Shown here: one piece after another, positions 9,384 through 60,919 of the stretch
How positions within the stretch are numbered: the first letter of the stretch is position 1
Layout: each line of letters begins with the position of its first letter
DNA from: Parcubacteria group bacterium GW2011_GWA2_43_11
GTDB lineage: Bacteria; Patescibacteriota; Minisyncoccia; Phycocordibacterales; UBA12088
Reading direction: 5' to 3'
DNA length: 64,000 bases
NCBI GenBank assembly: GCA_000998805.1
Contig: LCFC01000002.1
Span: 5,784-69,783, forward strand
Notes under the pieces: model-generated
What the model saw: the letters and a program-made list of their open reading frames with translations, nothing else
Databases searched by the model: none
What the model was told of the DNA's origin: nothing
Position numbers and translations under genes: made by a program

Positions 9384-9504
9384 AGGACTTACGCAAACGA
9401 GTGCAGTTCTAGGAAAACGAACAAAAAGGAGTGAGTCCCGCCACGGCGGGATGAACGACATTTTGTGAAGTTTGACAACGAAATGCGCCATTTGCGTATG
9501 TCCT
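9384..9504 (+). repeat. R-family element copy R1 (TIR - core hairpin A - TIR), 121 nt
   Basis: AGGACTTACGCAAACG...CATTTGCGTATGTCCT termini. The core is ACAAAAAGGAGTGAGTCCCGCCACGGCGGGATGAACGACATTTTGT. It fills the dnaK-dnaJ spacer and ends 3 nt from the dnaK stop codon. Confidence 0.9.
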
Positions 9505-9507
9505 ATA

Positions 9508-11397
9508 TTATTCTGTTTCAGCATCGCGTACCGTACCCTTATCTTCTTTGTTGGAATCATCATCCTTTTTCTCCGTAGTATCTTTTGAAGCATCGCCTTG
9601 TTTACTTATAGCCTCACCAATTTTAGATACCGATGTCGAAAGCGCGTCGGAAGCATTTCGTATAGCCTGACGATCCGTACCCTCGTTTGTTTTTTTCAAC
9701 GCATCAATTTTTTCTTGAACTTCTTTTTTCAAATCCTCGCCGACTTTATCTCCATACTCCTTGAGCGACTTCTCTGAGGTATATATAAGTTGCTCTGCAA
9801 TGTTTTTGGTCTCAATAAATTCACGTTTTTCTTTATCTTCCTTTTCATGAGTCTCAGCATCGCCTTGCATACTCTTAATATCACTTTCAGAGAGTCCTGA
9901 ACTCGCTTCTATTTTTATCGACTGTTCTTTATTTGAAGCTTTATCCTTAGCGGTCACTTTCAAGATTCCGTTCGCATCTACATCAAAGCTTACCTCAATC
10001 TGAGGCATACCTCTCGGTGCAGGTGGAATGCTGTCAAGAATAAATCGTCCGAGTGATTTGTTGTCTGCTGCCATTGCGCGCTCACCCTGCGTGATGTGAA
10101 TTTCTACCTGTGTTTGGTTATCAGCCGCGGTGGAAAAGGTTTGACTTCTCTGTGTAGGGATGGTCGTGTTGCGCTCTATAAGCTTTGTCGATACACCTCC
10201 CATAGTCTCAATACCAAGGGAGAGTGGAATAACATCAAGAAGGAGAACATCCTTTACATCACCCTGTAGGATACCTGCTTGTATAGCCGCGCCGTTCGCC
10301 ACCACCTCATCCGGGTTGATGGTTTTGTTAGGCTCTTTTCCAAACAATTCTTTTACCACTTTTACGATGGCAGGCATGCGGGTCTGTCCTCCTACGAGAA
10401 TAATCTCATCAATCTCTTCCTTCTTAAACGGAGATGCTTCTATGGCTCGTTTCGTAATAGCGATAGAACGCTGAATGAACTCATCTGCAAGTTCTTCGAG
10501 CTTGGTACGATTCAATTTAAGTAACAAATGCTTTGGTCCGTTTGCGTCAGAGGTGATGAACGGGATGTTGATTTCGGTATCCATAACAGTAGATAGTTCC
10601 ATCTTTGCCTTTTCTGCGGCCTCATCAAGCCTTTGTAGAGCGAGTGGGTCTTTCGTAACATCGATACCCGATTCTTTCTTAAATTCCTCGGCAATCCAAC
10701 GCACTATTTTTTGGTCGATATCTCGACCACCCATGTGCGCATCACCATCGGTACTCTTTACCTCAATAACGTCATCTCCTACTTCAAGTACAGACACGTC
10801 AAACGTACCACCACCGAAGTCAAAGACCACTATTTGTTCGTCTTTTTTCTTGTTGAATCCATATGCCAGAGCCGCCGCTGTAGGCTCGTTGATGATACGT
10901 AGGACTTCTAGGCCTGCTATCTTTCCTGCGTCTTTGGTAGCTTGTCTCTGTGAATCGTTAAAGTATGCAGGAACCGTAATCACCGCTTGGGTGATTTTCT
11001 CACCGAGCTTTCGCTCAGCATCCGCCTTCAGCTTCTGAAGAATCATCGCACTTATCTCCTCAGGTCGATAGTCTTTTTCACCCATCTTTATGAGTACACC
11101 GCCGTTGTCCGCTTTATTTACTTTATAGGCGACTATTTCCTTGTCTTTCTGAACAGCTTCCTCGTCATATGAGTGTCCGATGAATCGCTTGATACCATAT
11201 ATAGTGTTTTCCGGATTGGTAACAGCTTGTCGCTTTGCCACCACACCTACCGCACGTTCCTTCGTTTTTGAAATAGACACGACAGAAGGCGTGGTGCGAT
11301 TCCCTTCTTCATTCTCAATTATTTTTGGTTCACCTCCCTCAATAACAGCCATAGCAGAGTTCGTGGTACCAAGGTCAATTCCTAAAATTTTAGACAT
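9508..11397 (-). CDS. dnaK: Chaperone DnaK (Hsp70)
   Basis: 629 aa with [17 protein letters not shown] and other Hsp70 signatures throughout. Confidence 0.98.
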
Positions 11398-11454
11398 ACT
11401 TCGTGATGGTTACTTCTAATAAAGTCTTTAAAAAATAATGAAAGAGAAATAATA

Positions 11455-12066
11455 TTATTCCTTTTCTTGAATCTGTGCCACGACTACTTTTGCCGGGCGC
11501 ACAAGTTCCTGCTCAATCATATACCCTTTTTGAAGTACTTGTGCAATAGTGTGATCTTCTTTTTCCACACGCGTTGGCACAATACTCATACATTCATGAA
11601 TTAAAGGGTTGAAAGGTTCTCCGACGTCGCCAAATTCTGTACATCCGAGACTGGTGAGTGCTTGGCTCAATTGCCCCGCAATACGCTCGACTCCATTTCG
11701 CCAATTCTCATCCACTTCTTTCCATGAGACGTCTTGCATAGCAGATGCGAAACTATCAACGACAGGTATGACAGATGCAAGGACAGATGCTTTTGCTCGA
11801 CGCTTGTCGCGCACAGCATCCTCGTTGACATTCTTTCTGTAGTTAACAAGATCAGCCTTTGCGCGTTGCCAACCCGCCAGGTTTTCATCACGTTCTTTTT
11901 GTGTCGCGAGTAACTCTTTCCTAAGCTCTTTCAACTTCGCCTTTAGAGCAGAATTACTCACTTCTCCCTCCTCGAGAACTATCTCATTCCCAGAGTCAAT
12001 ATCTATTGAAATCTCCTCATTTTCAGCCCCTTTTTTCATGGTGGTTATTATAACCCTTGGTTTCAA
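11455..12066 (-). CDS. grpE: Nucleotide exchange factor GrpE
   Basis: 203 aa with a coiled-coil N-terminus, RAKADLVNYRKN, and a C-terminal beta domain (GYMIEQELVRPAKV). It lies upstream of dnaK. M10 is a possible alternative start. Confidence 0.9.
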   Translation of the reverse strand: MKPRVIITTMKKGAENEEISIDIDSGNEIVLEEGEVSNSALKAKLKELRKELLATQKERDENLAGWQRAKADLVNYRKNVNEDAVRDKRRAKASVLASVIPVVDSFASAMQDVSWKEVDENWRNGVERIAGQLSQALTSLGCTEFGDVGEPFNPLIHECMSIVPTRVEKEDHTIAQVLQKGYMIEQELVRPAKVVVAQIQEKE

Positions 12067-12083
12067 TATGTCAAATGAATATG

Positions 12084-12112
12084 TTGCATATTAGCGTATT
12101 TAATGGTATAAT
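12084..12112 (+). promoter_or_regulatory. Sigma70-type promoter (TTGCAT - 17 nt - TGgTATAAT) for the 12165 gene
   Basis: -35 TTGCAT at 12084-12089, and an extended -10 TGG-TATAAT with TATAAT at 12107-12112. SD AAGGAGG at 12152-12158 sits 6 nt before the ATG at 12165. Confidence 0.6.
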
Positions 12113-12164
12113 ATTATCTAGTATTTACTAGTTATTTTCTAATAAAAGACCAAGGAGGTGCCCT

Positions 12165-12743
12165 ATGGCACAAACATTCCCGACGCATGCAGTTGTAGGA
12201 GTTACACTTACACAAGCCATGGTTACATTCCATGTTGTGCAAGTCGAAAATGAAACAGTTTGGCTGTATGCTCTCGTAGCTGGGATGCTCGGAGCTATAG
12301 CCCCTGACATGGTAATGGTTCCTGAATTTTTCTGGGACAAGTACGTAAAGAAAATCCAACCCATGACGCAAGAAGGTCCAATCACCATGTTTCTCAAGGA
12401 GGTGTCGCATTCTCTATTCACTTGGTTAATTGCAGGACTTCTCTGGAGTATGTTTTTTCCTGCTGGAGAAATGAAAGTTTTTGGATTTGTTTTCCTTATA
12501 TGCGCACTGTTCGCTGGAGTAGTTCCAGACATCTACACACACACTGACCCGCGGTTCCTAAAAACTGATCCCACTTTCATTTATCCTATTTCTCATATAA
12601 CACGAAAGAGGCTTCGGTATAAAAATCCGAAACGGGAGTACAGAAAGGCTCATGGCGACCTGAGTATGAAGGAGTGGGAGAAAAGTCTGAATTTTTGGAC
12701 TTCTGTAGTGTTCTTTGTGCTCTTCCTTGTCAATCTTATTTGA
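12165..12743 (+). CDS. Membrane protein, possibly DUF457/YdjM-like membrane-bound metal-dependent hydrolase
   Basis: 192-aa ORF with a strong SD and promoter, several TM helices, and His/Asp-containing motifs (PTHAVVG, APDMV, SHSLF). The family assignment is weak. Confidence 0.5.
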   Translation: MAQTFPTHAVVGVTLTQAMVTFHVVQVENETVWLYALVAGMLGAIAPDMVMVPEFFWDKYVKKIQPMTQEGPITMFLKEVSHSLFTWLIAGLLWSMFFPAGEMKVFGFVFLICALFAGVVPDIYTHTDPRFLKTDPTFIYPISHITRKRLRYKNPKREYRKAHGDLSMKEWEKSLNFWTSVVFFVLFLVNLI

Positions 12744-12761
12744 GCACATTTGGGTGGTATT

Positions 12762-12790
12762 AAAACCCTTCGTTCTGAACGAAGGGTTTT
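12762..12790. terminator. Bidirectional hairpin terminator between convergent genes
   Basis: AAAACCCTTCG-TTCTGAA-CGAAGGGTTTT forms an 11-bp stem with A/T runs on both sides. It overlaps the ung stop codon. Confidence 0.6.
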
Positions 12791-13457: not shown

Positions 13458-13497
13458 AGTCTAGATTCTTCTATTGAGTAAATTATCTAAACTTAAA

Positions 13498-13815
13498 TTA
13501 AGAATTAGACTCATTGATATTCTTTTTCTTCCAGTTTTTAAGCTCATAATATTGTTCAATTTCACCTGCCTTGTGTGTATACTTATGTGTTGGTGTTATC
13601 TCCTCAAGACCTTCAACTACAAATTGATTATTATCTATTTGTCGTGCATATTTTTCAGACACTTCAACCTCATACACAAACACGGACTCATTAGGGTTAA
13701 ACAATTCAGGATTTTCGAACTCAATAGTTTTATCATCATTAATAAATGTTAGACCATGTGTTCTAACAGCCATTGCCAATGCATACTCGTAATGTGGCGT
13801 TAAATATATTCCCAT
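13498..13815 (-). CDS. Hypothetical protein; possibly the C-terminal part of a frameshifted longer gene starting at 13918
   Basis: 105-aa ORF. An upstream 51-codon ORF (ATG at 13918, MKFYHGSPNAYLSSLKRMQ...) ends in a different frame just where this ORF begins. Confidence 0.5.
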   Translation of the reverse strand: MGIYLTPHYEYALAMAVRTHGLTFINDDKTIEFENPELFNPNESVFVYEVEVSEKYARQIDNNQFVVEGLEEITPTHKYTHKAGEIEQYYELKNWKKKNINESNS

Positions 13816-14187: not shown

Positions 14188-14196
14188 TGGTACAAT
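14188..14196 (+). promoter_or_regulatory. Extended -10 element (TGgTACAAT) 7 nt upstream of the ATG; implies a leaderless mRNA
   Basis: TGGTACAAT at 14188-14196 and the ATG at 14204. No SD is present. Confidence 0.45.
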
Positions 14197-14203
14197 ACAA
14201 CAA

Positions 14204-14849: not shown

Positions 14850-16121
14850 TTATTGAATATTTACACTCAACGCCTCACCCCACCGTGTAGTACGCCGTGG
14901 CGAAAGATACTCTCGCCGAGCGCGCCACGTATCACTCTGCATTTCTACTCCCAACTGTACAATGTCTCCGTGTGTCTGCCGTATGTCATCAAGCACATGC
15001 ATGAGCACACTGTTCGTATTGGTAGGCTCTCCGAAGAGCGTTTCTCGTGGCTGTGCTCCATCGGGTACAATATTTCGCACCAGTACCCCAGCTTTCTTAT
15101 AGGCAACGTTAGGACGATATATTCGCTTCAGAATATCAAGCGCTGTCGCCACTATGAGAAACGTATCATTTGTATAGGTAAGTAATATTTCCACATCGAC
15201 GGACTTACTTTTTTTGCCATTCCCTTCTGGTGAATATATAAAGACACTAACTTCCTTTGCTACGGCAGACTCACTTCGCAGTATTCCTGCTATGGTGCGT
15301 GCATGCCCTGCTACTGCCGTCTCCAGATTACGTAGCGAAGTTACCCTTCTGCTAAAAGACTGCGAGCTAAGGAGTGACTTGCGCAACACTTCATCCTCTC
15401 CTAAATGGAAACAGCAAACCCCTCGAAGTTCTGACACTGTACGCAAACCTACAACGTTTGTTTCTTTCCGTATCCACGCATCATCTTTGTTGCACAAATC
15501 GAGGGCAGAGACAATTCCCTTTCGTGCAAGCTTTTGTGCATACGCCCTCCCAATACCCCACACATCACCCACGGCAATATCTTGTAACGCTTTTTGAATG
15601 TTTGAGTTTTTTATAAGAACATTGCTTCCATTACCCATGTACTGCGGTTTTGCGAAATGTGCCGCGACTTTTGCAAGTGTTTTTGTCTTTGCTATACCTA
15701 CAGACACAGGGACACCCACTTCTTGCAAAACAGTTGCTCGTATATCATTAGCTTTACGTAAAAGAAAAGCCTCTATATCCTCAGAAACAGAAAGTGCTAA
15801 AAATGCTTCATCAATTGAATACACCTCCACAACATCAGAGAAGCGACGTAAGACACTCATTACACGATTAGAAATATCTCTATACAGTTCAAAGTTTGAA
15901 GAAAACAATGCGACCTTATGTTGTTCACAGAGCACTTTAATCTTAAAGTATGGCTCACCCATTTTAATACCGAGCTTTTTTACCTCAAGAGAACGAGAAA
16001 CAATGCATCCATCATTACTAGAAAGTACCGCAACTGGGTGGTGTGCAAGGTCAGGACGAAACAATCGCTCACACGAAACAAAGAAGTTATCGCAGTCTAT
16101 CAAAAAAATATATTCAGTCAT
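14850..16121 (-). CDS. umuC: Y-family translesion DNA polymerase, UmuC-like
   Basis: 423 aa. The N-terminus IFLIDCDNFFVSCERLFRPDLAHHPVAVLSSNDGCIVSRS closely parallels the E. coli UmuC N-terminus, and SIDEAFL is present. A UmuD-like gene lies upstream. Confidence 0.9.
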   Translation of the reverse strand: MTEYIFLIDCDNFFVSCERLFRPDLAHHPVAVLSSNDGCIVSRSLEVKKLGIKMGEPYFKIKVLCEQHKVALFSSNFELYRDISNRVMSVLRRFSDVVEVYSIDEAFLALSVSEDIEAFLLRKANDIRATVLQEVGVPVSVGIAKTKTLAKVAAHFAKPQYMGNGSNVLIKNSNIQKALQDIAVGDVWGIGRAYAQKLARKGIVSALDLCNKDDAWIRKETNVVGLRTVSELRGVCCFHLGEDEVLRKSLLSSQSFSRRVTSLRNLETAVAGHARTIAGILRSESAVAKEVSVFIYSPEGNGKKSKSVDVEILLTYTNDTFLIVATALDILKRIYRPNVAYKKAGVLVRNIVPDGAQPRETLFGEPTNTNSVLMHVLDDIRQTHGDIVQLGVEMQSDTWRARREYLSPRRTTRWGEALSVNIQ

Positions 16122-16137
16122 GTATTATACCTATCAC

Positions 16138-16386
16138 AGGATTACGCAAACGGATACAGTTCGACTTGTCCTCCGTAGCTCCCGGAGGAGCGGAGGAGGA
16201 GGAAAACGAACAAAATGGAGCGCATCCCGCCACAGGCGGGATAGACGACATTTTGTGAAGTTTGACGACGAAATGCAACCTAATTTTTAACGAACGCAGG
16301 GAGTACCTGCGCGTGCGCATGGTTCTTGTGCCCTGTGGGTATAAAAATGGGAACGCTCTTGCGGTACGCCGATTGTATGAGTTCTA
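16138..16386 (+). repeat. R-family element copy R2 (TIR - F - core A - C with an extra 36-nt insert - degenerate TIR), about 249 nt
   Basis: Opens with AGGATTACGCAAACGG and contains ACAAAATGGAGCGCATCCCGCCACAGGCGGGATAGACGACATTTTGTGAAGTTTGACGACG. The right end CGCCGATTGTATGAGTTC is a decayed TIR that abuts the umuD-like stop codon. Confidence 0.85.
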
Positions 16387-16857
16387 TTACATTCTTCTAC
16401 TTACAGCTGATACCACCCCCCAAATACTCACTTCTCCACCATCCTCAAGCACAAGAGCTGTACTTGATTCACTACCGCAGATCAAAAATTTTTGACCCTC
16501 ATGTTCTGTAAAACGACACAGCGCAAACGCACCATCACGAACAGCCAAGACAAGTCGTCCAAGGGTTGGCGTCAAAGCCCTGTCTATAGTAAGCACATCC
16601 CCAGCATGTATGCCTAAAAATGTATTTTCCCCTATATCAAAATTTTCTTTATTACCTTCTACTTCGATAAAAAATGTTGATGCAGGATTGTGCACAAAGA
16701 GTGCATCTAAAGAAAGAGGGTTTGTGTACTCCTCAAAAAGACCCTCTCTTTCATCAAACTCTTTTGACAAACTTCCGCACACACTACATGCGGTGTGTTG
16801 GGTGAGCATTTTCTTCGATATATGCTCCTTATCTCTAATGAAAGGTACTGATTTCAT
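16387..16857 (-). CDS. UmuD-like S24-fold protein lacking the Ser/Lys catalytic dyad
   Basis: 156 aa. The C-terminal two thirds align to UmuD (HNPASTFFIEV..., GDVLTIDRALTPTLGRLVLAVRDGAF..., VSIWGVVSAV). However GDSM is replaced by GNKE, and the VKK lysine by LCR. Confidence 0.7.
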   Translation of the reverse strand: MKSVPFIRDKEHISKKMLTQHTACSVCGSLSKEFDEREGLFEEYTNPLSLDALFVHNPASTFFIEVEGNKENFDIGENTFLGIHAGDVLTIDRALTPTLGRLVLAVRDGAFALCRFTEHEGQKFLICGSESSTALVLEDGGEVSIWGVVSAVSRRM

Positions 16858-17001
16858 ACAAATGCTTTGGAATAGAAATTAAATAATATATTTATAAACT
16901 TTTTAATGATACTGCGTGACTTCACCACAATTCTTTCTTCTGCAAAATTTTATCAAACCAGCGTTAAGCTACGGTGAAGTTATTGGGATTCATAATATAG
17001 G

Positions 17002-17176
17002 AGGATTTACGCAAACGGGTGCAGTTCGACTTGTCCGCCGTAGCTCTCGGAGGAACGAAGGTGGAGGCGTCCAAGCAAAATGGAATGAGTTGTATTAACA
17101 ATACTACAAGAGACATTTTTGACGGGCAACGCCTGCCTGCGCAGACAGGATGAAATTCACCCGTTTTCGTAAGTCG
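17002..17176 (+). repeat. R-family element copy R3 (TIR - F - core B - extra hairpin - TIR), 175 nt
   Basis: AGGATTTACGCAAACGGG...CCCGTTTTCGTAAGTCGT termini. The core is GCAAAATGGAATGAGTTGTATTAACAATACTACAAGAGACATTTTTG. It ends 4 nt from the lexA stop codon. Confidence 0.88.
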
Positions 17177-17180
17177 TGTA

Positions 17181-17750
17181 TTATGCTCCATACGTACGTA
17201 TCACACTCCTAACCACGCCACCTATTTCGAGAGAAAACTGAGGCCACAAGTCGGGATAGTCTTCATTCGCTGCTTCTAGATACTTTTTACCTTTCTTCTC
17301 TCGTAAGTATTTAACTGTCCAATCACCGTCAAGGTTGGCGACGACAATATCACCCACTTTTGCTTGACTTGTACGCTCCACAAGCAAAAGGTCACCTTCG
17401 TAAATACCCGCATCCACCATAGAAAGACCCTTCACCCGCAGAAGATACATTTTTTCTCTTTTTCCCAACAAAAGCTCATCCACCGAAATTCTATCGAGTG
17501 CCATCTCTTCTGCTGGTGAAGGAAACCCCGCTTCTATGAGTCCAAGCAACGGCACTGTCTCTGTAAGTGCAACAGGCACCAATTTCCCTCGTGAATCTCT
17601 TTCTACCACACCAGCATCAACAAGTTTCTCTACCACCTTGGCAACAGCATTTTTGGAAGCAAAACCAAAGAGTGTACACATTTCACTATAGCCAGGCATG
17701 CGTTTATGCTTCTGAAAAAATGTTCTAAGTATCGTTGTGTATTGTTCCAT
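17181..17750 (-). CDS. lexA: LexA repressor
   Basis: N-terminal wHTH, an Ala-Gly cleavage site (IEAGFPSP), the catalytic Ser in KGLSM and Lys in TVKYL. The ATG at 17750 (MEQYTT...) is preferred. The ORF-track start at 17792 is a TTG lying inside repeat R4. Confidence 0.9.
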   Translation of the reverse strand: MEQYTTILRTFFQKHKRMPGYSEMCTLFGFASKNAVAKVVEKLVDAGVVERDSRGKLVPVALTETVPLLGLIEAGFPSPAEEMALDRISVDELLLGKREKMYLLRVKGLSMVDAGIYEGDLLLVERTSQAKVGDIVVANLDGDWTVKYLREKKGKKYLEAANEDYPDLWPQFSLEIGGVVRSVIRTYGA

Positions 17751-17759
17751 ATGTATTTT

Positions 17760-17880
17760 GAGACTTACGTAAACGGCGCATTTATGTGTCAAACTTCACA
17801 AAATGTCGTTCATCCCGCCGTGACGGGACTCACTCCTCTTTGTTCGTTTTCCTAGAACTGCATCCGTTTGCGTAAGCCCT
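17760..17880 (-). repeat. R-family element copy R4 (TIR - core A - TIR), 121 nt; the only copy in inverted orientation
   Basis: The plus strand reads GAGACTTACGTAAACGG CGCATTT...GTCAAACTTCACAAAATGTCGTTCATCCCGCCGTGACGGGACTCACTCC...CCGTTTGCGTAAGCCCT, which is the reverse complement of the R1/R10 layout. Confidence 0.9.
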
Positions 17881-20402: not shown

Positions 20403-20555
20403 TGTGGCAGTATACCTTGAGTCGGGTCTTGCGAAAACTTCACGTATCTCAAAATAGTTTTACTATTTTCGTAAAACATACTTCCCAGTAGTTGGACCTA
20501 CCAGAAGCTACCTAGTTTCGTAAGTAATAAACGAATACATCCTTTTACAAAGGTG

Positions 20556-23489: not shown

Positions 23490-23495
23490 ATTAAC

Positions 23496-23520
23496 ATGAA
23501 GAAGGTTGAACCTTCTTCAT
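23496..23520. repeat. REP-like palindrome, copy 1
   Basis: ATGAAGAAGGTTGAACCTTCTTCAT. The arms ATGAAGAAGG/CCTTCTTCAT pair perfectly. It lies about 45 nt upstream of the RAYT-like gene. Confidence 0.85.
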
Positions 23521-23565
23521 AGAGCTTTATACTATAAATATATTTTCTATATTTAATTTTTGCTT

Positions 23566-24303
23566 ATGCAACGCGAACCGATTGAGACAGACGGTATTTA
23601 TCACATTTATAATCGTGGTGTTGATAAACGAATTACTTTTGATGATGACGATGAGCATAGATATTTTATTCATTTCTTATACACTCTAAATGATTCGAAA
23701 AACACTTCTACTAATATTAGGAGGGATTTTCTATCAATAACAAGATCTAACAATTATAAAACTGCCACTAATGAAGAAGGTTCAACCTTCTTCATTAGTA
23801 AACCTAAAAGATATAAAAGAGACATGTTGGTCGATATATATGCTTTTGTATTAATGCCAAATCATTACCATCTACTTCTCAAACAAAAAGTAGACAACGG
23901 AGTTTCAAAATTTATGCAGAAGTTAGGTACTGGGTATACCATGATGTTCAATGAAAAACACGAACGTTCAGGTTCCTTGTTTCAGGGTCGATATAAAAGT
24001 AAACACATCTTAAGTGATGAACAGCTGAGATATATCACGCATTACATACATCTTAACCCTCTTGGAAAAAATAACTTATTAAATCTAGAAGAGAGTGTAG
24101 AATATTTAAAAAAATATAAATGGAGTAGCTTCCCTGACTATGTTGAAATTAAGAATTTCCCATCAGTTACTTCTCGAGATTTTATTTTTTCTCTTTTTGA
24201 AGATAAGAATAAATATTTAAAGAGCATCAGTTCAGTACTTGAAAAAAATGACCTTTTGTCACATGTTGATTCAAAAGACTGTATTGATTACAGCGACTCT
24301 TAA
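23566..24303 (+). CDS. REP-associated tyrosine transposase-like protein (RAYT / IS200-like HUH-Y1, COG1943 type)
   Basis: YHIYNRG N-terminal motif, the HUH motif in LMPNHYHLLL, GRYKSK, and a C-terminal Tyr helix YITHYIHLNP. The ATG at 23566 is used because the ORF-track start is a TTG. The gene is flanked by REP-like palindromes. Confidence 0.8.
   Translation: MQREPIETDGIYHIYNRGVDKRITFDDDDEHRYFIHFLYTLNDSKNTSTNIRRDFLSITRSNNYKTATNEEGSTFFISKPKRYKRDMLVDIYAFVLMPNHYHLLLKQKVDNGVSKFMQKLGTGYTMMFNEKHERSGSLFQGRYKSKHILSDEQLRYITHYIHLNPLGKNNLLNLEESVEYLKKYKWSSFPDYVEIKNFPSVTSRDFIFSLFEDKNKYLKSISSVLEKNDLLSHVDSKDCIDYSDS
23771..23795. repeat. REP-like palindrome, copy 2, in-frame inside the RAYT-like CDS
   Basis: ATGAAGAAGGTTCAACCTTCTTCAT. 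It encodes NEEGSTFFI within the linker between the YHIYNRG and HUH motifs. Confidence 0.85.
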
Positions 24304-24307
24304 GATT

Positions 24308-25573
24308 TTAAACAGAAGAGAATGAAGAAGGTTGAACCTTCTTCATGTTTTGGGTGGAATGAGAAAGAATGAGGTCACGGTAGACGAACGCGGAGGGGCG
24401 GATGGTGCGCTCGAGGGTGTCGTAGTTTACCTCTACGAGACCGAACCGTTTGTCAAAACCGTGCGCCCATTCATAGTTATCAAGCAAAGACCAATACATA
24501 AAACCCCGAACATCAGCACCGTTTTTTATTGCTTTACCAATACCACCTACTGTTTTTCTAATATAGTCCGCTCGAAAAGCATCTTTTGCGTCTGCACAAC
24601 CACACTCCTCGACGTACACAGGTTTATTATATCGTTGTACTTCCATTATGGCATCGTAAATACCTTCAGGTCGCAAGTCCCATCCCATATCTGTCTTTGG
24701 ATAGTTCGTTTTGCTACCAAAGTCAGTGTAAAAATAATAATTCAAACCAATACTGTCTGAGTTTTTATATATCTTTTTCAAATACCTATGGGTCATATTC
24801 CACATCTGGAATTTTGCCACAAGTTTATAAAAGGGATTCCCGTGAGCATTAAAATAATGCACTTGAAACACTACGGTTACATGTATATGAGGTGCAATCT
24901 CTTTAATCGCACTATACGCAGTGTTGTGTGCACGCGCCAAAACATTCGCAAGTGTAAAAAATTTAATTATTTCCCCCCAATCTGTAGTCGAGTTCTTACT
25001 CAATTCCTTATCATTTGGTATTCGGGCCAATGCAATCAATGGAAAACGTTGAAACGGAGGGAATGTCCCGCGTACCCACCCGTTTATAACTGTCGAATAC
25101 GGTTCATTCAGTGTTGTGAAGTGTGTAGCCAAGTCTGACAAGCGAGAAACAACATATGCACAATACCGTGCAAATATTTCTGGAAAATCCTTGTGCTCAA
25201 TACCACCTTTCGCATCTAGCCAACTAGGAATCGTCCAATGCCACAATGTCACACTTGGCTCAAGATTTCTTTCTCTTAGCGCTCTCAAAACACTTCTGTA
25301 ATGTTCTATTTCCCTATCATCAAACTTCCCTTCCTCGGGCTCAATGCGTGACCACTCTATAGAAAATCTATGTGCGTTGTGTCCGAGAGACTTTGCAATA
25401 TCAAAATCTTGCTCGTAGCGATTGTAGTGGTCGCACGCCTTCCCACACACAGGCACTTTGCCTTCACGAGCGCTCTTCGCCCAGTCATTGTTTTCAATTC
25501 CTCCTTCTACTTGATAGGCAGATGTAGCTGCGCCCCACAGAAACGTATCTGGAAAGACTTTTTTTTCTTGCAT
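24308..25573 (-). CDS. GH1 beta-glucosidase
   Basis: FLWGAATSAYQVEGG, TLNEP (acid/base) and YVEECG (nucleophile region). The ATG at 25573 (MQEKKVFPDTF) is preferred over the ORF-track start at 25603. The last residues (MKKVQPSSFSSV) are encoded by REP copy 3. Confidence 0.9.
   Translation of the reverse strand: MQEKKVFPDTFLWGAATSAYQVEGGIENNDWAKSAREGKVPVCGKACDHYNRYEQDFDIAKSLGHNAHRFSIEWSRIEPEEGKFDDREIEHYRSVLRALRERNLEPSVTLWHWTIPSWLDAKGGIEHKDFPEIFARYCAYVVSRLSDLATHFTTLNEPYSTVINGWVRGTFPPFQRFPLIALARIPNDKELSKNSTTDWGEIIKFFTLANVLARAHNTAYSAIKEIAPHIHVTVVFQVHYFNAHGNPFYKLVAKFQMWNMTHRYLKKIYKNSDSIGLNYYFYTDFGSKTNYPKTDMGWDLRPEGIYDAIMEVQRYNKPVYVEECGCADAKDAFRADYIRKTVGGIGKAIKNGADVRGFMYWSLLDNYEWAHGFDKRFGLVEVNYDTLERTIRPSAFVYRDLILSHSTQNMKKVQPSSFSSV
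24322..24346. repeat. REP-like palindrome, copy 3 (forms the 3' end of the GH1 CDS)
   Basis: ATGAAGAAGGTTGAACCTTCTTCAT, identical to copy 1. Confidence 0.85.
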
Positions 25574-25595
25574 TGCTAATACGATACCATTAGGT

Positions 25596-25630
25596 ATACA
25601 CACAAAGAAAGAGGCATCCCGAAAGATGCC
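25596..25630 (-). terminator. Candidate rho-independent terminator for the 25750-26148 gene
   Basis: The minus strand reads AGGGGCATC-TTTCGG-GATGCCTCT followed by TTCTTTGTGTG. Confidence 0.45.
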
Positions 25631-25706
25631 CCTTTAAAACAGACCGTCAACCCTTAGGTCAACGTGTCAAACCACACCACTGTGGCTGACAAAAGACAAA
25701 AAGTGT

Positions 25707-25731
25707 ATGAGTAAGGTTGAACCTTCCTCAT
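25707..25731. repeat. REP-like palindrome, copy 4 (variant)
   Basis: ATGAGTAAGGTTGAACCTTCCTCAT. One arm change is compensated (A>G with T>C) and one is not. Confidence 0.75.
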
Positions 25732-25749
25732 GATGCCGAACGAAGGGGG

Positions 25750-27663: not shown

Positions 27664-27691
27664 CGAGCTTTTGATATTTGTTTTTACACCC

Positions 27692-27726
27692 AAGGTCGAC
27701 GTTTTTTGTCGACCTTGTTTATTTAT
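27692..27726 (+). terminator. Rho-independent terminator
   Basis: AAGGTCGAC-GTTTTTT-GTCGACCTT followed by GTTTATTTAT. Confidence 0.7.
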
Positions 27727-27744: not shown

Positions 27745-27986
27745 AGGACTTACGCAAACGGATGCGACCTAATTTTTAACGACCGCAGGGAGTATAAAAA
27801 TGGAAATACCCTTTTGGTGTAATTCGAGGCGCACAAACAAAATACTACGAGTCGTATGAATAGTACGGTGAGGAGTATTTTGTGTAGCGCAACGATGAAG
27901 TACGACCAATTTTTCTTACGATCCGCCAGCTGGCGGAGAATTAGAAAAATGAAGTACTCTTGTGGTGCGCCGTTTTCGTAAGTCCT
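27745..27986 (+). repeat. R-family element copy R5 (TIR - C - core B variant - D - TIR), 242 nt
   Basis: AGGACTTACGCAAACGG...CCGTTTTCGTAAGTCCT termini. It contains module C (GCGACCTAATTTTTAACGACCGCAGGGAGTATAAAAATGG) and module D (CGACCAATTTTTCTTACGATCCGCCAGCTGGCGGAGAATTAGAAAAATGAAG). It ends 3 nt from the ddl stop codon. Confidence 0.9.
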
Positions 27987-30252: not shown

Positions 30253-30374
30253 GGGACTTATGCAAACGGATGCAGTTCGAGACGCCCTAGCAAAATGGAA
30301 CAAGTTGTATGAACAATACTACGAGAGACATTTTGTGCAGGGCAACGATGAAATGCGCCGTTTGCATAAGTCCC
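30253..30374 (+). repeat. R-family element copy R6 (TIR - core B - TIR), 122 nt, with a perfectly paired, doubly compensated TIR
   Basis: GGGACTTATGCAAACGG...CCGTTTGCATAAGTCCC termini. It fills the uvrA-uvrC spacer, lying 1 nt from the uvrA stop and 10 nt from the uvrC start. Confidence 0.92.
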
Positions 30375-40364: not shown

Positions 40365-40580
40365 AGGACTTACGCAAACGGATGCGACCTAATTTTCAAG
40401 GAGTGAAACGACTATGAAAATGGAAATGCCCTTGCGGTACAGTTCTAGGAAAGCGAACAAAATGGAGCGAGTCCCGCCACGGGCGGGATGAGAGATATTT
40501 TGTGAAGTTTGACAACGAGAATGCGACCAATTTTTCTTACGACTGTAAGGAGTTAGAAAAATGAAGTGCCCTCGTGGTGT
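40365..40580 (+). repeat. R-family element copy R7 (TIR - C - core A - D), right TIR missing
   Basis: AGGACTTACGCAAACGG, then module C with a covarying stem (AATTTTCA/TATGAAAAT), core A and module D. Homology to R5 stops at ...GTGGTG (40580), inside the ybeY ORF. Confidence 0.85.
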
Positions 40581-40853
40581 ATAGGAGATACTACCGCAAA
40601 AAAATTAAACAAAACGTATAGAAACAAAACTTCGCCTGCAAACATACTCACCTTCCCTCTTGCGAAAAATGAGGCAGAGATTTTTCTCAATGTAGCCGGC
40701 ATCAAAAGAGAAGCCCACCGATTTGATTTCACACCAAGTCAACATGGACGTTTTTTGCTTATCCACGGTTGTTTGCATTTGAAAGGACACACGCACGGGA
40801 GTACAATGGAACAAGCGGAGGAACGAGCACTCAAAAAATTTGCTATCCGCTGA
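40566..40853 (+). CDS. ybeY: Endoribonuclease YbeY, N-terminally short; the 5' end overlaps R7
   Basis: LNKTYRNKTSPANILTFP and the zinc motif HGCLHLKGHTHG are present. At 95 aa from a GTG start, it lacks about 35-40 N-terminal residues compared with typical YbeY. It may be truncated or a pseudogene. Confidence 0.65.
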   Translation: MPSWCIGDTTAKKLNKTYRNKTSPANILTFPLAKNEAEIFLNVAGIKREAHRFDFTPSQHGRFLLIHGCLHLKGHTHGSTMEQAEERALKKFAIR

Positions 40854-44572: not shown

Positions 44573-44624
44573 AGACATATACGTACACTTCCACAAATAG
44601 ATACTTGAGAAGAGAGATCGTCCA

Positions 44625-44879
44625 AGACCTACGCAAATGGATGCGACCAATTTTTCTTATGATCCGCCAGCGTGCGGAGAGTTAGAAAAATGAAGTACTC
44701 CTGCTCGCCCCGTATACAGCTATGCTGTTGTACTGGGGTGGTGCAATTCAAGGCGCCAGAACAAAATAGAATGAGTTGTATGAGTAATACTACGAGAGAT
44801 ATTTTGCGACGGGCCCTGTACTAGAGCGAAGCTTCAGTACGGGGCGGGCAACGATGAAGTGCGCCGTTTGCGTAGGTCA
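44625..44879 (+). repeat. R-family element copy R8 (TIR - D with nested hairpin - core B with nested hairpin E - TIR), 255 nt
   Basis: AGACCTACGCAAATGG...CCGTTTGCGTAGGTC termini. Nested hairpins lie at 44708-44738 and 44814-44844, the latter flanked by a duplicated CGGG. Confidence 0.9.
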
Positions 44880-44911
44880 TGTTACAGGCGCTGTTGTTGC
44901 AACTCCTTTCT

Positions 44912-53967: not shown

Positions 53968-54039
53968 TGGCCCTATCGTCTAACGGTTAGGACATCGCCT
54001 TCTCAAGGCGGTAATCAGAGTTCGATTCTCTGTAGGGTC
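53968..54039 (+). tRNA. tRNA-Glu (anticodon CTC)
   Basis: Manual cloverleaf: acceptor GGCCCTA/TAGGGTC, D stem GTCT/GGAC, anticodon stem TCGCC/GGCGG with loop TTCTCAA, T arm CAGAG-TTCGATT-CTCTG, discriminator A. CCA is not encoded. Confidence 0.9.
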
Positions 54040-54046
54040 ACAAAGG

Positions 54047-54654: not shown

Positions 54655-54656
54655 AA

Positions 54657-56919: not shown

Positions 56920-56947
56920 TTGCTTTTACTGATAAATAATATCTTCT

Positions 56948-57069
56948 AGGACTTACGCAAACGGGTGAAATTCAAGGCGCCCGAACAAAATAGAACGAGT
57001 TGTATGAATAATACTACGAGAGATATTTTGTGACGGGCAACGATGAAGTACACCGTTTCCGTAAGTCCT
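56948..57069 (+). repeat. R-family element copy R9 (TIR - core B - TIR), 122 nt
   Basis: AGGACTTACGCAAACGG...CCGTTTCCGTAAGTCCT termini. The core is ACAAAATAGAACGAGTTGTATGAATAATACTACGAGAGATATTTTGT. It fills the ftsI-murF spacer and ends 3 nt from the ftsI stop. Confidence 0.92.
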
Positions 57070-57072
57070 GGC

Positions 57073-58791
57073 TTATCTATCTGGTGGTATATCATAGTAG
57101 TTAATCAAAAAGTCGACAAGTTCCATAAAAGGCGCGGTTAGAGTTTCAGAGGCGTATCTGGCTCCTTGCGGTTCCAAATGATACAAGAAAATAATAAACC
57201 TTGGTTCATACGCTGGGAAGTACCCAAAGAAAGAATGAAGATATCTGTCATCATAATACCCACGTTCACCATCATGCGCCATCTGTGCTGTACCTGTTTT
57301 AGCTGCTATGGCGTAGTGCTCTTTCGCAACAGTGCCCCCTCGTAGCGCATCATCTACCACATTAACAAGCATTTGTGTTATTTCACGAGACGTATCTTCT
57401 GAAATGACCTGTACATGATCATCCGGAGCTACAGACGCTTCAGCACCGTTTTCATACTGAATGTGTGTAACAAAATGAGGTGTAACCAGATACCCACCAT
57501 TACCAAGGGCGGCAAGCGCTCGCACTGTTGCGATAGGTGTAAGTGCTATACCTTGTCCGAACGCGGCAGTCGCATACTCTACTCTACGGGGACTGTCGAG
57601 ATTGTTAATGAGTCCTCGCGCCTCGAACGGAATATCTATACCGGTCTCTTCACCAAAACCAAACGCTTTCATACGCTCACCGAGCACCTTGCCACCCACC
57701 TTGTCGGCCACAAACGACATACCGAGATTGAGGGATTGATTTAACACCTCCTGCATAGGCACCACACCACGCGCTCCCCCATCGTAGTTGCTAATTTTGT
57801 ACCCATCAACCGTAATGTTTCCCGTATCGTTGTACGTTGTATCTTGAGTGACTGCCCCCTCATCAAGACCTATGGCCATAGCAATAGGTTTAATAATCGA
57901 ACCCATCTCGTACACGTCCTCAACAAACGGATTGCGAAAAACGCGTGCATCTTTTTCCTCAGAGTACAGATTTGAATCAAATGATGGAAGCGCACTCATT
58001 GCATATATTGCTCCTGTCTTGGGGTCCATGATTATACCCGCAAGCTGTTTTGCCCCCCACTCGTCTTGTGTTTTGAGTAATACTCTATCAAGTGCTTGTT
58101 GTACCGCAGGCTCAATACTGGTCACCACACTTCCCACACGCGGGGTCTCTTCAGACGAAAACGCTTCACGCGCATTCGTAAAAATCTCGGCAAAAAAGTT
58201 GACATACAATCTATCCGTTTGTCGTTCAAGTACAGACTCCCAATAGCGCTCAAGTCCATACTGCCCTTTTTGAGTAATGCCGTCTTCGCCAAATCCTACA
58301 AAGCCCAGTACGAGACTCGCCATGGATCCGCCTGGGTAGTACCTCCATTGCTCACGGAAAAGTTGAACGCCTTTCAAATCTTCTTTCTCTATCAGTTCAG
58401 CGGCTTCCGGAGTAACATGTCGAGCCATTTCTTCGTATGGGTCCTCTGTTTTTCCCGCACGCGCAAAAAAAAGCTCTTTATCAATATCCATGTGTTTCCG
58501 CAAGGTATCATACACATGTTGTGCATCCTCTATCTGATTAGGATTTAAAGCCAACATATACCCACTCTTGAGCGAAGCTGCTGCAATACGCTCACCATTT
58601 CGCAAGGTGAAGAAAATTGAACCTCTATCAAAAATATCACGTGAAGAACGTACGTATTGATTGTTAGCTTCAGCTCTATAGCTCTGCCCATGAGCAACCT
58701 GCAATATATATAATCGGACGATGATAATACATGCAAAGATAACAATACCTACAACGAGGATTCGTATGCGAATTAATAGTTGCGTACGCAT
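57073..58791 (-). CDS. ftsI: Penicillin-binding protein (FtsI/PBP2-type transpeptidase)
   Basis: 572 aa with an N-terminal TM segment, SxxK (GSIIKP), KTGTAQ, and dcw cluster position. Confidence 0.9.
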   Translation of the reverse strand: MRTQLLIRIRILVVGIVIFACIIIVRLYILQVAHGQSYRAEANNQYVRSSRDIFDRGSIFFTLRNGERIAAASLKSGYMLALNPNQIEDAQHVYDTLRKHMDIDKELFFARAGKTEDPYEEMARHVTPEAAELIEKEDLKGVQLFREQWRYYPGGSMASLVLGFVGFGEDGITQKGQYGLERYWESVLERQTDRLYVNFFAEIFTNAREAFSSEETPRVGSVVTSIEPAVQQALDRVLLKTQDEWGAKQLAGIIMDPKTGAIYAMSALPSFDSNLYSEEKDARVFRNPFVEDVYEMGSIIKPIAMAIGLDEGAVTQDTTYNDTGNITVDGYKISNYDGGARGVVPMQEVLNQSLNLGMSFVADKVGGKVLGERMKAFGFGEETGIDIPFEARGLINNLDSPRRVEYATAAFGQGIALTPIATVRALAALGNGGYLVTPHFVTHIQYENGAEASVAPDDHVQVISEDTSREITQMLVNVVDDALRGGTVAKEHYAIAAKTGTAQMAHDGERGYYDDRYLHSFFGYFPAYEPRFIIFLYHLEPQGARYASETLTAPFMELVDFLINYYDIPPDR

Positions 58792-58804
58792 AAAATCAAA
58801 CGCC

Positions 58805-59128
58805 TTACTGATTTCTAGTTAATCGATCATGGCCTTCGCGAGCCACAGTGACATAGGACGCGGTAGGCACTTCCACAAGTCCCAAACTAGCTGCTGTATC
58901 TTGAGAAAGTACGCTTGAACCCTCAATGTATGAAGCCTCAAGATTACTTACTCGCGTCTCTGCTTCCTGCACAGAAACAAGCAGTTCTTGTCGTAACACA
59001 ACTTGAATAACCGTCATCGCAATAAAATAAACATAGAGAAGGAGTGCAAGAGCAAGCAAACTCCACTCCAGCCATGAGATACAGGACTCTATCCGCACAT
59101 GAATATTTTTAAATGATACTGTTCCCAT
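58805..59128 (-). CDS. ftsL: FtsL-like small bitopic cell-division protein
   Basis: 107 aa with a single TM segment followed by a coiled-coil-like stretch, positioned between rsmH and ftsI. The call is positional. Confidence 0.55.
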   Translation of the reverse strand: MGTVSFKNIHVRIESCISWLEWSLLALALLLYVYFIAMTVIQVVLRQELLVSVQEAETRVSNLEASYIEGSSVLSQDTAASLGLVEVPTASYVTVAREGHDRLTRNQ

Positions 59129-59173
59129 GATATTTTTTAATAGATAAATATTTATTGATATAACGTCACTTTT

Positions 59174-60097
59174 CTACTCAGCTTTCATAAAACACCGTAA
59201 TTTTGCACTTCGTGACCGGCGATTTTCAATACACTCCTTCCTACTTGGCACTATGGGACGTTTAGTTATTCGTTCCCCTAAGCCCTCTTTCTCCCACTCG
59301 ATAAATGCACGCTTCACAATTCTATCTTCTAAACTGTGAAATGAGATTATCGCAATACGTCCACCGGGAGCCAAAATCTTTAAACTTTTACTGAGAACTT
59401 CCCCGAGTGCGCCAAGTTCGTCATTTACTGCGATACGTATAGCTTGAAAGGTGCGTGTCGCGGGATGTGCACCACTCCTTCGAGGTGTTGCTTGTTCTAC
59501 TATAGCTGCAAGCTCCTTACTGGTTTCAATGCTTTTTGTCTGACGTGCCTCTACGATAGCTCGAGCAATACGTCGTGACCTTTTTTCTTCCCCAAAACCA
59601 AAAATAATGTCGGCAAGTGACTCCTCACTCCATTCATTGACCACATGCCATGCGGTCAAGGTGTGTAGATCTCTAGCATGTGCAAATGTCATCTTGAGCG
59701 GTTCATCCACCATGAAGCTGAAACCTCGTCCACTTTGTGTTTCGAGCTGGTCAGAAGAAAGCCCAAGGTCAAGAAGAATTTTATGCACTTGGTTTATGCC
59801 TGCTTCCTGTATCAACGTGTCCATCGTTCTAAAATTACCCAAGGCAAAGTGCATTCGCTTATCTCTTCCAAGTAGCTTTCGTACCCGTGTGAGCGCAGTA
59901 TCATCTGCATCAATCCCGAGGTACATTCCATTTGGTCCAAGCTTTTCTAGAATGTGTGTAGCATGTCCACCACCACCCAATGTGCCATCCACTACCGTAT
60001 CAGTAGGTTTGACAGCAAGTACAGTAATGACGTTTTGTAAAAGAACAGGTATGTGCACGGTAGTTGCTTGTTGGTTTTTCTTGCTTTGTTTTTCCAT
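59174..60097 (-). CDS. rsmH: 16S rRNA (cytosine1402-N4)-methyltransferase RsmH
   Basis: 307 aa with HIPVLL, DGTLGGGGH, DLGLSS and SFHSLEDR. Confidence 0.95.
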   Translation of the reverse strand: MEKQSKKNQQATTVHIPVLLQNVITVLAVKPTDTVVDGTLGGGGHATHILEKLGPNGMYLGIDADDTALTRVRKLLGRDKRMHFALGNFRTMDTLIQEAGINQVHKILLDLGLSSDQLETQSGRGFSFMVDEPLKMTFAHARDLHTLTAWHVVNEWSEESLADIIFGFGEEKRSRRIARAIVEARQTKSIETSKELAAIVEQATPRRSGAHPATRTFQAIRIAVNDELGALGEVLSKSLKILAPGGRIAIISFHSLEDRIVKRAFIEWEKEGLGERITKRPIVPSRKECIENRRSRSAKLRCFMKAE

Positions 60098-60099
60098 AC

Positions 60100-60534
60100 C
60101 TACAACACACCTATTGCACCCAACGCTTCTGCAACTCTATCAGCCTCCTTCTCAACAGACGTTTGGTAGACATCCCACGCATCCTCACTCCATACCTCAC
60201 AACGATCATGTACCCCTATGAGTACAGCCTTGGTATCTAGTTTTGCATGTGTGGCAAGCTCTGAAGGAATAAGAATTCTTCCTAACTGGTCTATATCCAA
60301 TTCCGCAGCACCTGCAAAGAAGTATCTAGCAAACGCACGTGAATCAGCCTGACCCATTGAGAGTGCTTTAAGTTTCTCGACTATTGAGCGCCATTCTGTC
60401 TGACTAAAGACAAAAAGGCATGAGTCGAGTCCGCGCGTGATGATAACTTTTTTCCCAAGCGCACGACGAAATTTAGCCGGAAGCGCAATCCTTCGCTTCT
60501 CATCTAGAGTATGTCTGTATTCTCCGATGAGCAT
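60100..60534 (-). CDS. mraZ: Transcriptional regulator MraZ
   Basis: 144 aa with duplicated SpoVT/AbrB-like halves carrying the DEKRRIALPAKFR and DQLGRILIP motifs. Confidence 0.95.
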   Translation of the reverse strand: MLIGEYRHTLDEKRRIALPAKFRRALGKKVIITRGLDSCLFVFSQTEWRSIVEKLKALSMGQADSRAFARYFFAGAAELDIDQLGRILIPSELATHAKLDTKAVLIGVHDRCEVWSEDAWDVYQTSVEKEADRVAEALGAIGVL

Positions 60535-60669
60535 GCGAAATGTATTAGCTTATAAACAAGTACTCCTTACTGCAAACTGTTTCTTCCGCACAACGTACTT
60601 TTGAAACGGTATGTAATTTAGAGCGATGTATAAACATATTTTCCGTAAAACAAAGAGATACTATCATTT

Positions 60670-60705
60670 ACCACTTTGTTCCACTTACCTACCACAATAC
60701 ACCAC
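60670..60705 (-). promoter_or_regulatory. Putative MraZ operator: four phased GTGG(T/A) direct repeats
   Basis: The plus strand has ACCAC at 60670, TCCAC at 60680, ACCAC at 60691 and ACCAC at 60701 (10/11/10-bp phasing). They lie 135-170 nt upstream of mraZ. Confidence 0.5.
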
Positions 60706-60798
60706 AATGAGTATTTTGTCTTACCTATTTATCCACAAAAAAACAATACGGAAAGGAAAATTATCCTTGTAATAAAAGACTATTTCAATTACTTACCT

Positions 60799-60919
60799 AG
60801 GACTTTCCCAAACGTCGTACTTCTAGGAAAACGAACAAAATGGAGTGAGTCCCGCCACGGGCGGGATGAACGACATTTTGTGAAGTTTGACAACGAAATG
60901 CGGCGTTTGGGTAAGTCCC
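60799..60919 (+). repeat. R-family element copy R10 (TIR - core A - TIR), 121 nt
   Basis: AGGACTTTCCCAAACG...CGTTTGGGTAAGTCCC termini with a compensated G>C/C>G pair. Core A is identical to R1 apart from one base. It lies in the divergent mraZ / relA spacer. Confidence 0.92.

Follow-up and report, generated by a model that had tools for sequence, protein, structure and literature searches.

A modular family of hairpin repeats in a Parcubacteria genome is very probably a new family of miniature transposable elements with ISPlag1-type ends

Short hairpin-forming repeats recur between the genes of a 64,000-nucleotide stretch of Parcubacteria group bacterium GW2011_GWA2_43_11 (assembly GCA_000998805.1, contig LCFC01000002.1, positions 5,784 to 69,783 of the forward strand; herein, the whole of this stretch is referred to as the window and coordinates are counted from its first base). 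These 64 kb hold ten copies (R1 to R10) and one relic of what we call the R family, each copy being 121–257 nt long and non-coding (too small for a protein), and nine of the ten copies carry terminal inverted repeats of 17–18 nt on both sides (R7 is the exception). [quoted passage not shown] Because its members are small, non-coding and multicopy, have terminal repeats and target duplications of the parental length, occupy sites that are filled in one genome and empty in another, and share their ends with an IS, the R family behaves as a MITE by every testable criterion. Judged against Rfam and the literature, it is a new MITE family, albeit of a familiar kind of element: no Rfam repeat family was found in the window and no Rfam family matched any copy in either gathering-score or E ≤ 1 scans, and our literature search recovered no paper on the R family or on any MITE in the Candidate Phyla Radiation (CPR) or Saccharibacteria, and none containing the R end sequence other than for ISPlag1. 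The original prediction, which was made from the DNA letters alone and saw in these repeats no named family, is thus borne out for the element as a whole and not for its ends, which belong to a described IS group.

The existence of a dispersed, modular family of hairpins closed by inverted repeats and comparable to Correia or BOX elements, as first proposed for this stretch, is well supported, and the evidence now points to a MITE. A covariance model (CM) built from the five minimal copies (R1, R4 as its reverse complement, R6, R9 and R10; alignment A1) and run with filters off across the whole window returns exactly ten loci, everything else scoring below 20 bits; the sequences read as described, and the predicted coordinates stand except that R3 ends at 17177 and R8 spans 44624 to 44880. 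The 17-mer end AGGACTTACGCAAACGG has 13 matches on the two strands with up to two mismatches, where dinucleotide shuffles lead one to expect 0.01. All copies proved to be intergenic, with the truncated end of R7 running into ybeY, and the expectation that every copy save R7 closes with the reverse complement of its opening end is correct overall, the closing repeat of R2 matching at only ~12 of 17 positions. As RNA, the minimal copies fold into one long hairpin (−50 to −66 kcal/mol, z −8 to −10 vs shuffles), and the larger, composite copies form branched structures in which each extra module makes its own hairpin and the terminal repeats provide the closing stem.

Evidence for transposition comes from the junctions. 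Among 48 elements bounded by both ends (at most three mismatches per end), 15 are flanked by a perfect 5-bp direct repeat at offset 1, that is, outside the terminal T...A (sometimes C...G), whereas offsets 0, 2 and 3 yield 0, 1 and 0 perfect repeats in the same elements and a control with shuffled partners (2000 trials) averaged 0.5 and never exceeded 4. The duplicated set includes copies with the R core in LCCS01 (TCATT, TATCA), the contigs of the metagenome-assembled genome (MAG) "Parcubacteria group bacterium GW2011_GWD2_42_14", which are syntenic with the window at 82–91% nucleotide identity, as well as three 129-nt copies of a type found in Saccharibacteria. A TA duplication of the IS630/mariner kind was considered and rejected, since offset 0 has no perfect repeat against 15 at offset 1; IS701 proper makes a 4-bp YTAR duplication, which was likewise rejected because it does not fit the element junctions.

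The site of R7 (40365..40580, + strand) is available in both states. In the metagenome contig L093, which is ~80% identical to the window, the site is empty (...ACAACAATGGGAACT) and the sequence ...CGCTAAACAACAATGGGAACTATC... consists of the upstream stop, a 6-nt spacer and the ATG of ybeY, whereas the filled site of LCCS01 reads ACAAC-AATGA-T[AGGAC...GTCCT]A-AATGA-GTACTATT (the last part starting with GTACT); the left junction is common to the window and LCCS01. Comparison of the empty and filled sites indicates that the insertion duplicated AATGR and that an ATG was retained for ybeY. The LCCS01 ortholog of R7 (L049:745-867) is a simple element of 123 nt with a perfect target duplication (AATGA / TCATT). 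Further insertion polymorphism is seen in the absence of R3 from the orthologous LCCS01 site, in three LCCS01 copies that are absent from the window or survive there only as a relic, and in a full element nested within another on the LCCS01 contig L086; at the R3 and R4 sites, the flanks in LCCS01 are too diverged, or contain another partial element, for empty-site junctions to be read at the level of single bases.

The ends themselves lead to a described group of ISs. The R consensus end TAGGACTTACGCAAACGG matches the start of a 953-nt contig of Hymenobacter piscis (L005) at 18 of 18 positions, and 22 nt after this end begins an open reading frame (ORF) that scores 324 bits on the NCBIfam model "IS701 family transposase" (NF049921), also matches Pfam DDE_5/DDE_Tnp_1 and is ~49% identical to the RefSeq "IS701-like element ISPlag1 family transposase" of Planktothrix plasmids; roughly ten other H. 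piscis contig ends carry an R-type end. In complete ISPlag1-type elements from Planktothrix, Nodularia and Paraburkholderia, both ends read (C/T)AGGACTTACGCA..., and the published inverted repeat of ISPlag1, an IS of Planktothrix agardhii, is CAGGACTTACGCAAGCACG... (PMC2464740). Duplications of 5 bp lie outside the terminal base of the Planktothrix (TTCAA) and Paraburkholderia (ACCTC) ISs, and the Nodularia copy lacks one. What had been described as the closing stem of the R elements is therefore the terminal inverted repeat of this IS group, with which the R family shares the terminal (C/T)AGGACTTACGCAA... (18/18 with Hymenobacter) and the position and length of the duplication; the ISs differ in being 1.1–1.4 kb long and in encoding a DDE transposase, and only the 18-nt ends are common to them and to the far shorter R elements.

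Ends of the R type also enclose interiors of 46–359 nt that are unrelated to that of the R family in Pseudanabaena, Rivularia, Calothrix, Nostoc, Janthinobacterium, a Burkholderiales MAG and a Chloroflexota MAG, and a different, 129-nt type of interior in a Saccharibacteria MAG. One end combined with many interiors is the pattern expected if a transposase recognizes the ends and leaves the interior free to vary. The loci with unrelated interiors (L014, L012, L023, L043, L031, L051, L070, L007 and L016) belong to Cyanobacteria, Betaproteobacteria, Gammaproteobacteria, Chloroflexota and Bacteroidota, and many of them have perfect 5-bp duplications; a single IS end has thus given rise to many independent MITE derivatives across phyla. 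There are also ultra-short derivatives of 46–75 nt that amount to barely more than two ends (L022:4016-4069, L025:6296-6341 and L015:4270-4343), and as one of these has a perfect ATAAA duplication, the ends alone appear to be sufficient for mobility.

The window has a GC content of 41% and its genes include dnaK/dnaJ, umuDC, a lexA-like repressor, ddl and uvrABC; one ENA metagenome contig is identical to it across 7.8 kb and the JGI contig L136 is 99.87% identical across 4.6 kb. In related contigs, ~70 further matches to the R family were found, which together with the window copies represent 49 distinct sites. The core hairpin design of the R family recurs in several "Candidatus Saccharibacteria" MAGs, in another "Parcubacteria group" MAG and in 45 metagenome stretches, and among the contigs searched, interiors of this design are confined to CPR-labelled or unlabelled groundwater contigs. 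When the exact 17-mer end was scanned over 185,579 species genomes, 86 stretches were returned, of which ~70 are estimated to arise by chance; as this total is near chance, the signal lies in the clustering of matches, which fall repeatedly in CPR MAGs, at the Hymenobacter piscis contig ends (~10) and in Cyanobacteria (nine). Two other sources were considered and rejected: viral carriage, because no R-type element was found on viral contigs, the exact end giving a single chance match within a phage ORF and an R-specific 19-mer giving none, and a cyanobacterial origin, because the window has zero HIP1 (GCGATCGC) sites. The only tRNA of the window, tRNA-Glu(CTC) at 53969-54041, is also its only Rfam match at gathering score.

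Five of the window copies are minimal, consisting of a single core hairpin between two ends. Three are of core type A: R1 (9384..9504, + strand, 121 nt, CM score 124.6 bits) is flanked by the dnaK stop, 3 nt beyond its right end, and by the start of dnaJ, 25 nt beyond its left end; R4 (17760..17880, 121 nt) is inverted, scores 119 bits on the minus strand and stands directly upstream of the lexA-like gene in place of that upstream region; and R10 (60799..60919, + strand, 121 nt, 123.4 bits) occupies the divergent region between mraZ and relA/spoT, with a G-C to C-G flip in both of its ends. The other two are of core type B: R6 (30253..30374, + strand, 122 nt, 129 bits) fills the gap from the stop of uvrA (1 nt away) to the start of uvrC (10 nt away), and its ends show paired compensatory changes (GGGACTTATG...CATAAGTCCC); R9 (56948..57069, + strand, 122 nt, 124.5 bits) separates the stop of a penicillin-binding-protein transpeptidase (3 nt) from the start of a Mur ligase (28 nt).

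The remaining copies, all on the + strand, are composites in which further hairpin modules (C to G) accompany the core. In R2 (16138..16386), a left end with a 1-nt deletion is followed by F (16165-16201), a core of type A (16202-16276), a C module in expanded form (16277-16367) and a right end that is degenerate; the copy touches the umuD-like stop codon, the umuC start is 16 nt away, and its orthologous LCCS01 site holds a nested pair of elements. The lexA-like stop codon is 4 nt away from R3 (17002..17177), which consists of a left end, F (17030-17066), a type B core (17067-17131), a G hairpin (17132-17149) and a right end. Within the umuC / umuD-like / lexA-like cluster (14850-17880), R2, R3 and R4 fill every intergenic gap. 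R5 (27745..27986) lies 3 nt from the ddl stop and has a left end, C (27766-27821), a type B' core (27822-27903), D (27904-27968) and a right end; just upstream, at 27691-27717, is a hairpin followed by a T-tract that resembles a canonical intrinsic terminator, and hence this genome does use ordinary terminators, unlike the R hairpins. R7 comprises a left end, C (40386-40440), a type A core (40441-40524) and a truncated D (40525-40580), its right end having been deleted. R8 (44624..44880), between two converging genes, has a left end with a 1-nt deletion, D (44645-44707), E (44708-44744), a type B core (44745-44814), a second E (44815-44849) and a right end. The relic (20492..20528, + strand) retains degenerate ends (TTGGACCTACC...CTAGTTTCGTAAGTAAT) with almost no interior, and its LCCS01 ortholog is a full composite.

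The modules measure 18–91 nt (mostly 35–65), and every module match lies inside an end-bounded element. They also recur in LCCS01 and in a Saccharibacteria MAG, which upholds the interpretation of the repeats as a modular family. The scheme of modules first distinguished as C, D, E and F is amended in that R8 has two E modules, R3 has the additional G, and C and D are not separate from one another: C and D share both ends (GACC[T]AATTTTT...AAAAATGRAARTRC-CYYTKKGGTGC) and differ only in the apex, and hence form a single module family. The rule that each element has exactly one core hairpin applies within the window and fails among relatives, where the LCCS01 element at L057 has the order end-C-D-end with no core. 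C/D modules follow immediately on a TGC in one of the two arms (GGATGC^AGTTC on the left, GAAATGC^GCC on the right), terminate in ...GGTGC and occur in either orientation, including a reversed module at one and the same TGCA site; the position of F is the TTCGA^GG loop, that of G is CAACG^ATGAA, and E follows CGGGC.

Comparison with LCCS01 shows that orthologous copies differ by the gain, loss, exchange and inversion of modules. R7, with C, D and a TCCCGCC apex, corresponds to an element with no modules and a CTGTAC apex; R5, with its B' core, C and D, corresponds to a plain 122-nt type A element (L079:1460-1581); and the R4 site (L086:3645-3760) contains a 5'-truncated element with a D module in the opposite orientation. 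R6 and its ortholog (L088:7076-7197) have identical junctions and inverted interiors, such that 111 of 122 positions are identical in the same element orientation and 80 of 122 in the other. An inverted interior at matching junctions was also noted for R4 and its counterpart at L086:3645-3760. Recombination through the inverted arms would be the simplest cause of such inversion in place.

Several observations sit uneasily with the interpretation of the R family as nothing more than a MITE. None of the ten window copies has kept a perfect target duplication, the best being R6 with four of five positions, and the window copies are thus old insertions. A tblastn search with four ISPlag1-group proteins detected no ISPlag1-type transposase in ~585 kb of element-bearing DNA, made up of the window, CPR genome loci (~205 kb) and metagenome loci (315 kb); the transposase partner may reside elsewhere or have been lost, as with the MITE Nezha and ISNpu3. 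Sequence conservation, stem covariation, an excess of G.U pairs and orientation bias are all found in the R family, and none of them is predicted for a MITE that is passive and purely selfish. R6 is 91% identical to its LCCS01 ortholog, in comparison to 53.8% and 55.0% identity at the 4-fold degenerate sites of uvrA and ddl (window vs LCCS01), and the R ends have stayed near-perfect while the flanking duplications decayed. Two CM-guided alignments, A4 with 26 copies and A10 with another 46 from metagenomes (34 distinct), show changes on both sides in 28 and 27 of 48 stem pairs, respectively; 91.5% (A4) and 89.8% (A10) of cells are paired, the observed values are reached by 0 of 500 shuffles, and pairing collapses to ~35–42% in controls with a shifted register. 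In the plus orientation, the stems contain 81 G.U pairs vs 17 A.C mismatches, and mutation bias was rejected as the cause because the local skew predicts the opposite asymmetry. Finally, at 22 of the 49 sites (25 with mixed clusters), a converging gene has its stop within 15 nt of the right end, whereas the left end lies beside the stop of a same-strand gene at one (four with mixed clusters) and two sites have both arrangements; this 22:1 bias in orientation (binomial p ~6e-6) is not attributable to the replication strand, as the sites away from stops are divided only 12:7 with respect to regional GC skew.

These same observations underlie an alternative that overlaps with the MITE interpretation and is not exclusive of it, namely that the interior has been exapted for a function as a module of structured RNA or of single-stranded DNA, the transposon ends being only its delivery vehicle. 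It might act at gene 3' ends or between cistrons as a determinant of processing or stability, a platform for protein binding or an antisense RNA. We regard this as possible but, on balance, unlikely. In its favor are the replication of the covariation in an independent metagenome set, the slow divergence of R6, the orientation bias that regional GC skew does not account for, and the architecture of the core, in which the apex stem varies freely (TCCCGCC/GGCGGGA, GTTGTAT/ATACTAC, CTGTAC/GTACAG, GCGTAT/ATACGG) while the internal loops are conserved as two tandem 5'-GA/5'-GA mismatches with two base pairs between them. Folded as RNA, the strand that carries the G.U pairs (the plus-orientation strand) exceeds its complement in stability by up to 15 kcal/mol; for DNA, the difference is only 1–4 kcal/mol. 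However, this better-folding, purine-rich strand is antisense to the neighboring gene at most sites, and so a read-through mRNA would carry the weaker version that contains A.C mismatches. The elements also have neither consistent sigma-70-like promoters nor intrinsic terminators, and there is no U-tract after the hairpins; a promoter or terminator function was rejected on the basis of these scans. Moreover, copies at orthologous sites can be inverted, have another core type or have gained or lost modules, which argues against a site-specific function, and covariation in near-palindromic DNA can also arise through subfamily founder effects or intra-hairpin repair.

A more specific form of this proposal holds that the interior is a conserved, rod-shaped nucleic acid under purifying selection, orientation-specific at gene 3' ends, which evolves ~7 times more slowly than 4-fold sites and whose hairpin modules serve as interchangeable cassettes, inserted at TGC sites and inverted in place; in minimal genomes from which the transposase has been lost, the domesticated MITE would then serve generally as a post-transcriptional or genome-architecture device. 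We hold this version to be rather doubtful. The placement of R elements beside stop codons is readily explained by A/T-rich, TAA-containing targets together with selection that spares the start of the downstream gene, but that account leaves their orientation at stops unexplained. The orientation might be due to selection that keeps out of operon mRNA a very stable hairpin with many Shine-Dalgarno-like motifs, to a role of the plus strand as antisense or single-stranded nucleic acid, or to an asymmetric target.

It is very unlikely that the elements or their modules are single-strand hairpins of the REP/PATE type moved by an HUH (Y1) transposase, such as that encoded at 23560-24303. This ORF (+ strand, 247 aa) does match the Pfam family Y1_Tnp of IS200-like HUH transposases, and the constant position of single C/D hairpins beside the TGC of an arm, with their ...GGTGC termini, loosely recalls site-specific insertion that leaves no long duplications. 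Yet the long terminal inverted repeats and 5-bp duplications of the R family are features that HUH elements lack, which largely refutes the proposal for whole elements; for the modules, strand-specific insertion is weakened by their occurrence in both orientations, and modules are never found outside end-bounded elements. The Y1 gene also has unrelated palindromes of its own: a perfect palindrome, GAAGAAGGTTGAACCTTCTTC, flanks the ORF (23498-23518 and 24324-24344), with an in-frame copy at 23773-23793 and another at 25709-25729. This arrangement (23490-25732) is also present in LCCS01 and in a metagenome relative, the palindrome occurs nowhere else in ~900 kb, and the whole looks like a unit of the RAYT/REPtron type. 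That the copies are ordinary terminators or attenuators resembling one another by chance is scarcely tenable, for although they are stable hairpins just after stop codons, the terminator scan of the elements was negative, many copies lie inside operons (dnaK-dnaJ, umuD-umuC, uvrA-uvrC), R4 and R10 lie in divergent promoter regions, and the IS-type ends, target duplications and empty site are left unexplained, with insertion polymorphism and duplication refuting the idea.

We therefore return to a MITE with ISPlag1-type ends as the favored explanation and hypothesize that the copies were moved, now or formerly, by an ISPlag1-type transposase supplied in trans. Insertion would have been directed to A/T-rich pentamers in very short intergenic gaps; these pentamers probably often overlap a TAA stop, such that the duplication would preserve that stop. 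The cargo between the ends would be one core (tandem G.A loops and a variable apex) with optional C/D, E, F and G hairpins, presumably reshuffled by insertion at the TGC sites of the arms, by inversion in place and by recombination or gene conversion via the conserved arms. As most copies lie within operons, we presume that they are transcribed along with the genes and that their RNA forms long hairpins, which, by analogy with Correia and ERIC, could be processed or could alter mRNA stability.

Some insertions have evidently altered genes. The stop codon of an adjacent gene overlaps, or is, the TAG/TAA of the element's terminal T-A-G-G at L110:3681-3802, L093:4451-4572 and L034:6383-6504, indicating that stop codons are supplied by element ends and that MITE insertion has redefined the C-termini of some proteins. 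In R7, a deletion removed the right end together with ~36 N-terminal codons of ybeY (window 40525-40853, compared with L049:360-745). The ybeY ORF now begins at a GTG (40566) inside module D (VPSWC-IGDT...) and keeps the region of the catalytic HGxLHLxGxxH motif; it is possible that this truncated gene is a pseudogene or, alternatively, a fusion of MITE and gene.

The R family works like Correia, Nezha or ERIC, is built like BOX and is a member of none of these. The Correia elements of Neisseria (NEMIS/CREE) are likewise abundant intergenic MITEs with long terminal inverted repeats that form a hairpin when transcribed, and their terminal repeats are ~26 bp long with a TA duplication. The R family is unrelated to them in sequence and has another parent IS family, different ends and a duplication of 5 bp, and no promoter or IHF site was identified in R elements. 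Inversion in place and cleavage by RNase III at the paired ends have been described for Correia (review PMC10969869), and the former is seen in the R family as well. ERIC, a hairpin MITE of enterobacteria, is often found at gene 3' ends, where its orientation affects the fate of the mRNA (review PMC10969869); the R family has a strong orientation bias at gene 3' ends and is unrelated in sequence and host. Nezha is a MITE of 130–170 bp that shares ends and duplications with ISNpu3, an IS absent from the host genome (PMC3184786), and the R family also has IS-shared ends with no such IS found in the host DNA searched. Cyanobacterial elements of ~125 nt (L012 and L023) combine R-type ends with perfect 5-bp duplications, and their interiors are unrelated to the R core.

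The modular principle itself is shared with BOX of Streptococcus pneumoniae, in which variable hairpin subunits (boxA-boxB(n)-boxC) lie between conserved end modules and which, like the R family, is intergenic and nests with other repeats. The module sequences appear to be unrelated, and while the R family has IS-type terminal repeats with a duplication and a parent IS group, we know of no IS-type terminal repeats with a defined target duplication, or of an identified parent IS, for BOX. Small hairpin units nested in MITE-like hairpins are a further likeness to the small dispersed repeats (SDRs) nested within mini-transposons of Nostoc, which Elhai et al. (2008) reportedly described as units of 21–27 nt with compensatory changes; the R modules are larger, unrelated in sequence and not cyanobacterial. 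REP sequences, which are 20–40-nt palindromes clustered around the gene for a Y1 transposase (RAYT), have no terminal inverted repeats or duplications, unlike the R family.

The genomes of CPR bacteria (Patescibacteria) are ~1 Mb in size, densely packed and commonly regarded as poor in mobile DNA, and against this background a single MITE family that makes up ~2.7% of a 64-kb stretch is notable for its density, modularity and unusually good conservation. Hardly a gap of the SOS operon (umuC-umuD-lexA) is without an R element; R elements also stand between genes that are essential (dnaK/dnaJ, uvrA/uvrC, ddl, the penicillin-binding-protein transpeptidase and the Mur ligase), and have reshaped gene ends by supplying TAG stops and truncating ybeY. 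They offer a ready marker of strain-level variation in groundwater CPR populations and a clear example of how the end sequence of an IS has spread over at least five phyla with differing cargos. Conservation, strand asymmetry, orientation bias and cassette-like modules make the R family a better-than-average MITE: if its conservation and orientation bias reflect function, it would be an instance of MITE domestication in minimal genomes; otherwise, it is a well-behaved new MITE family.

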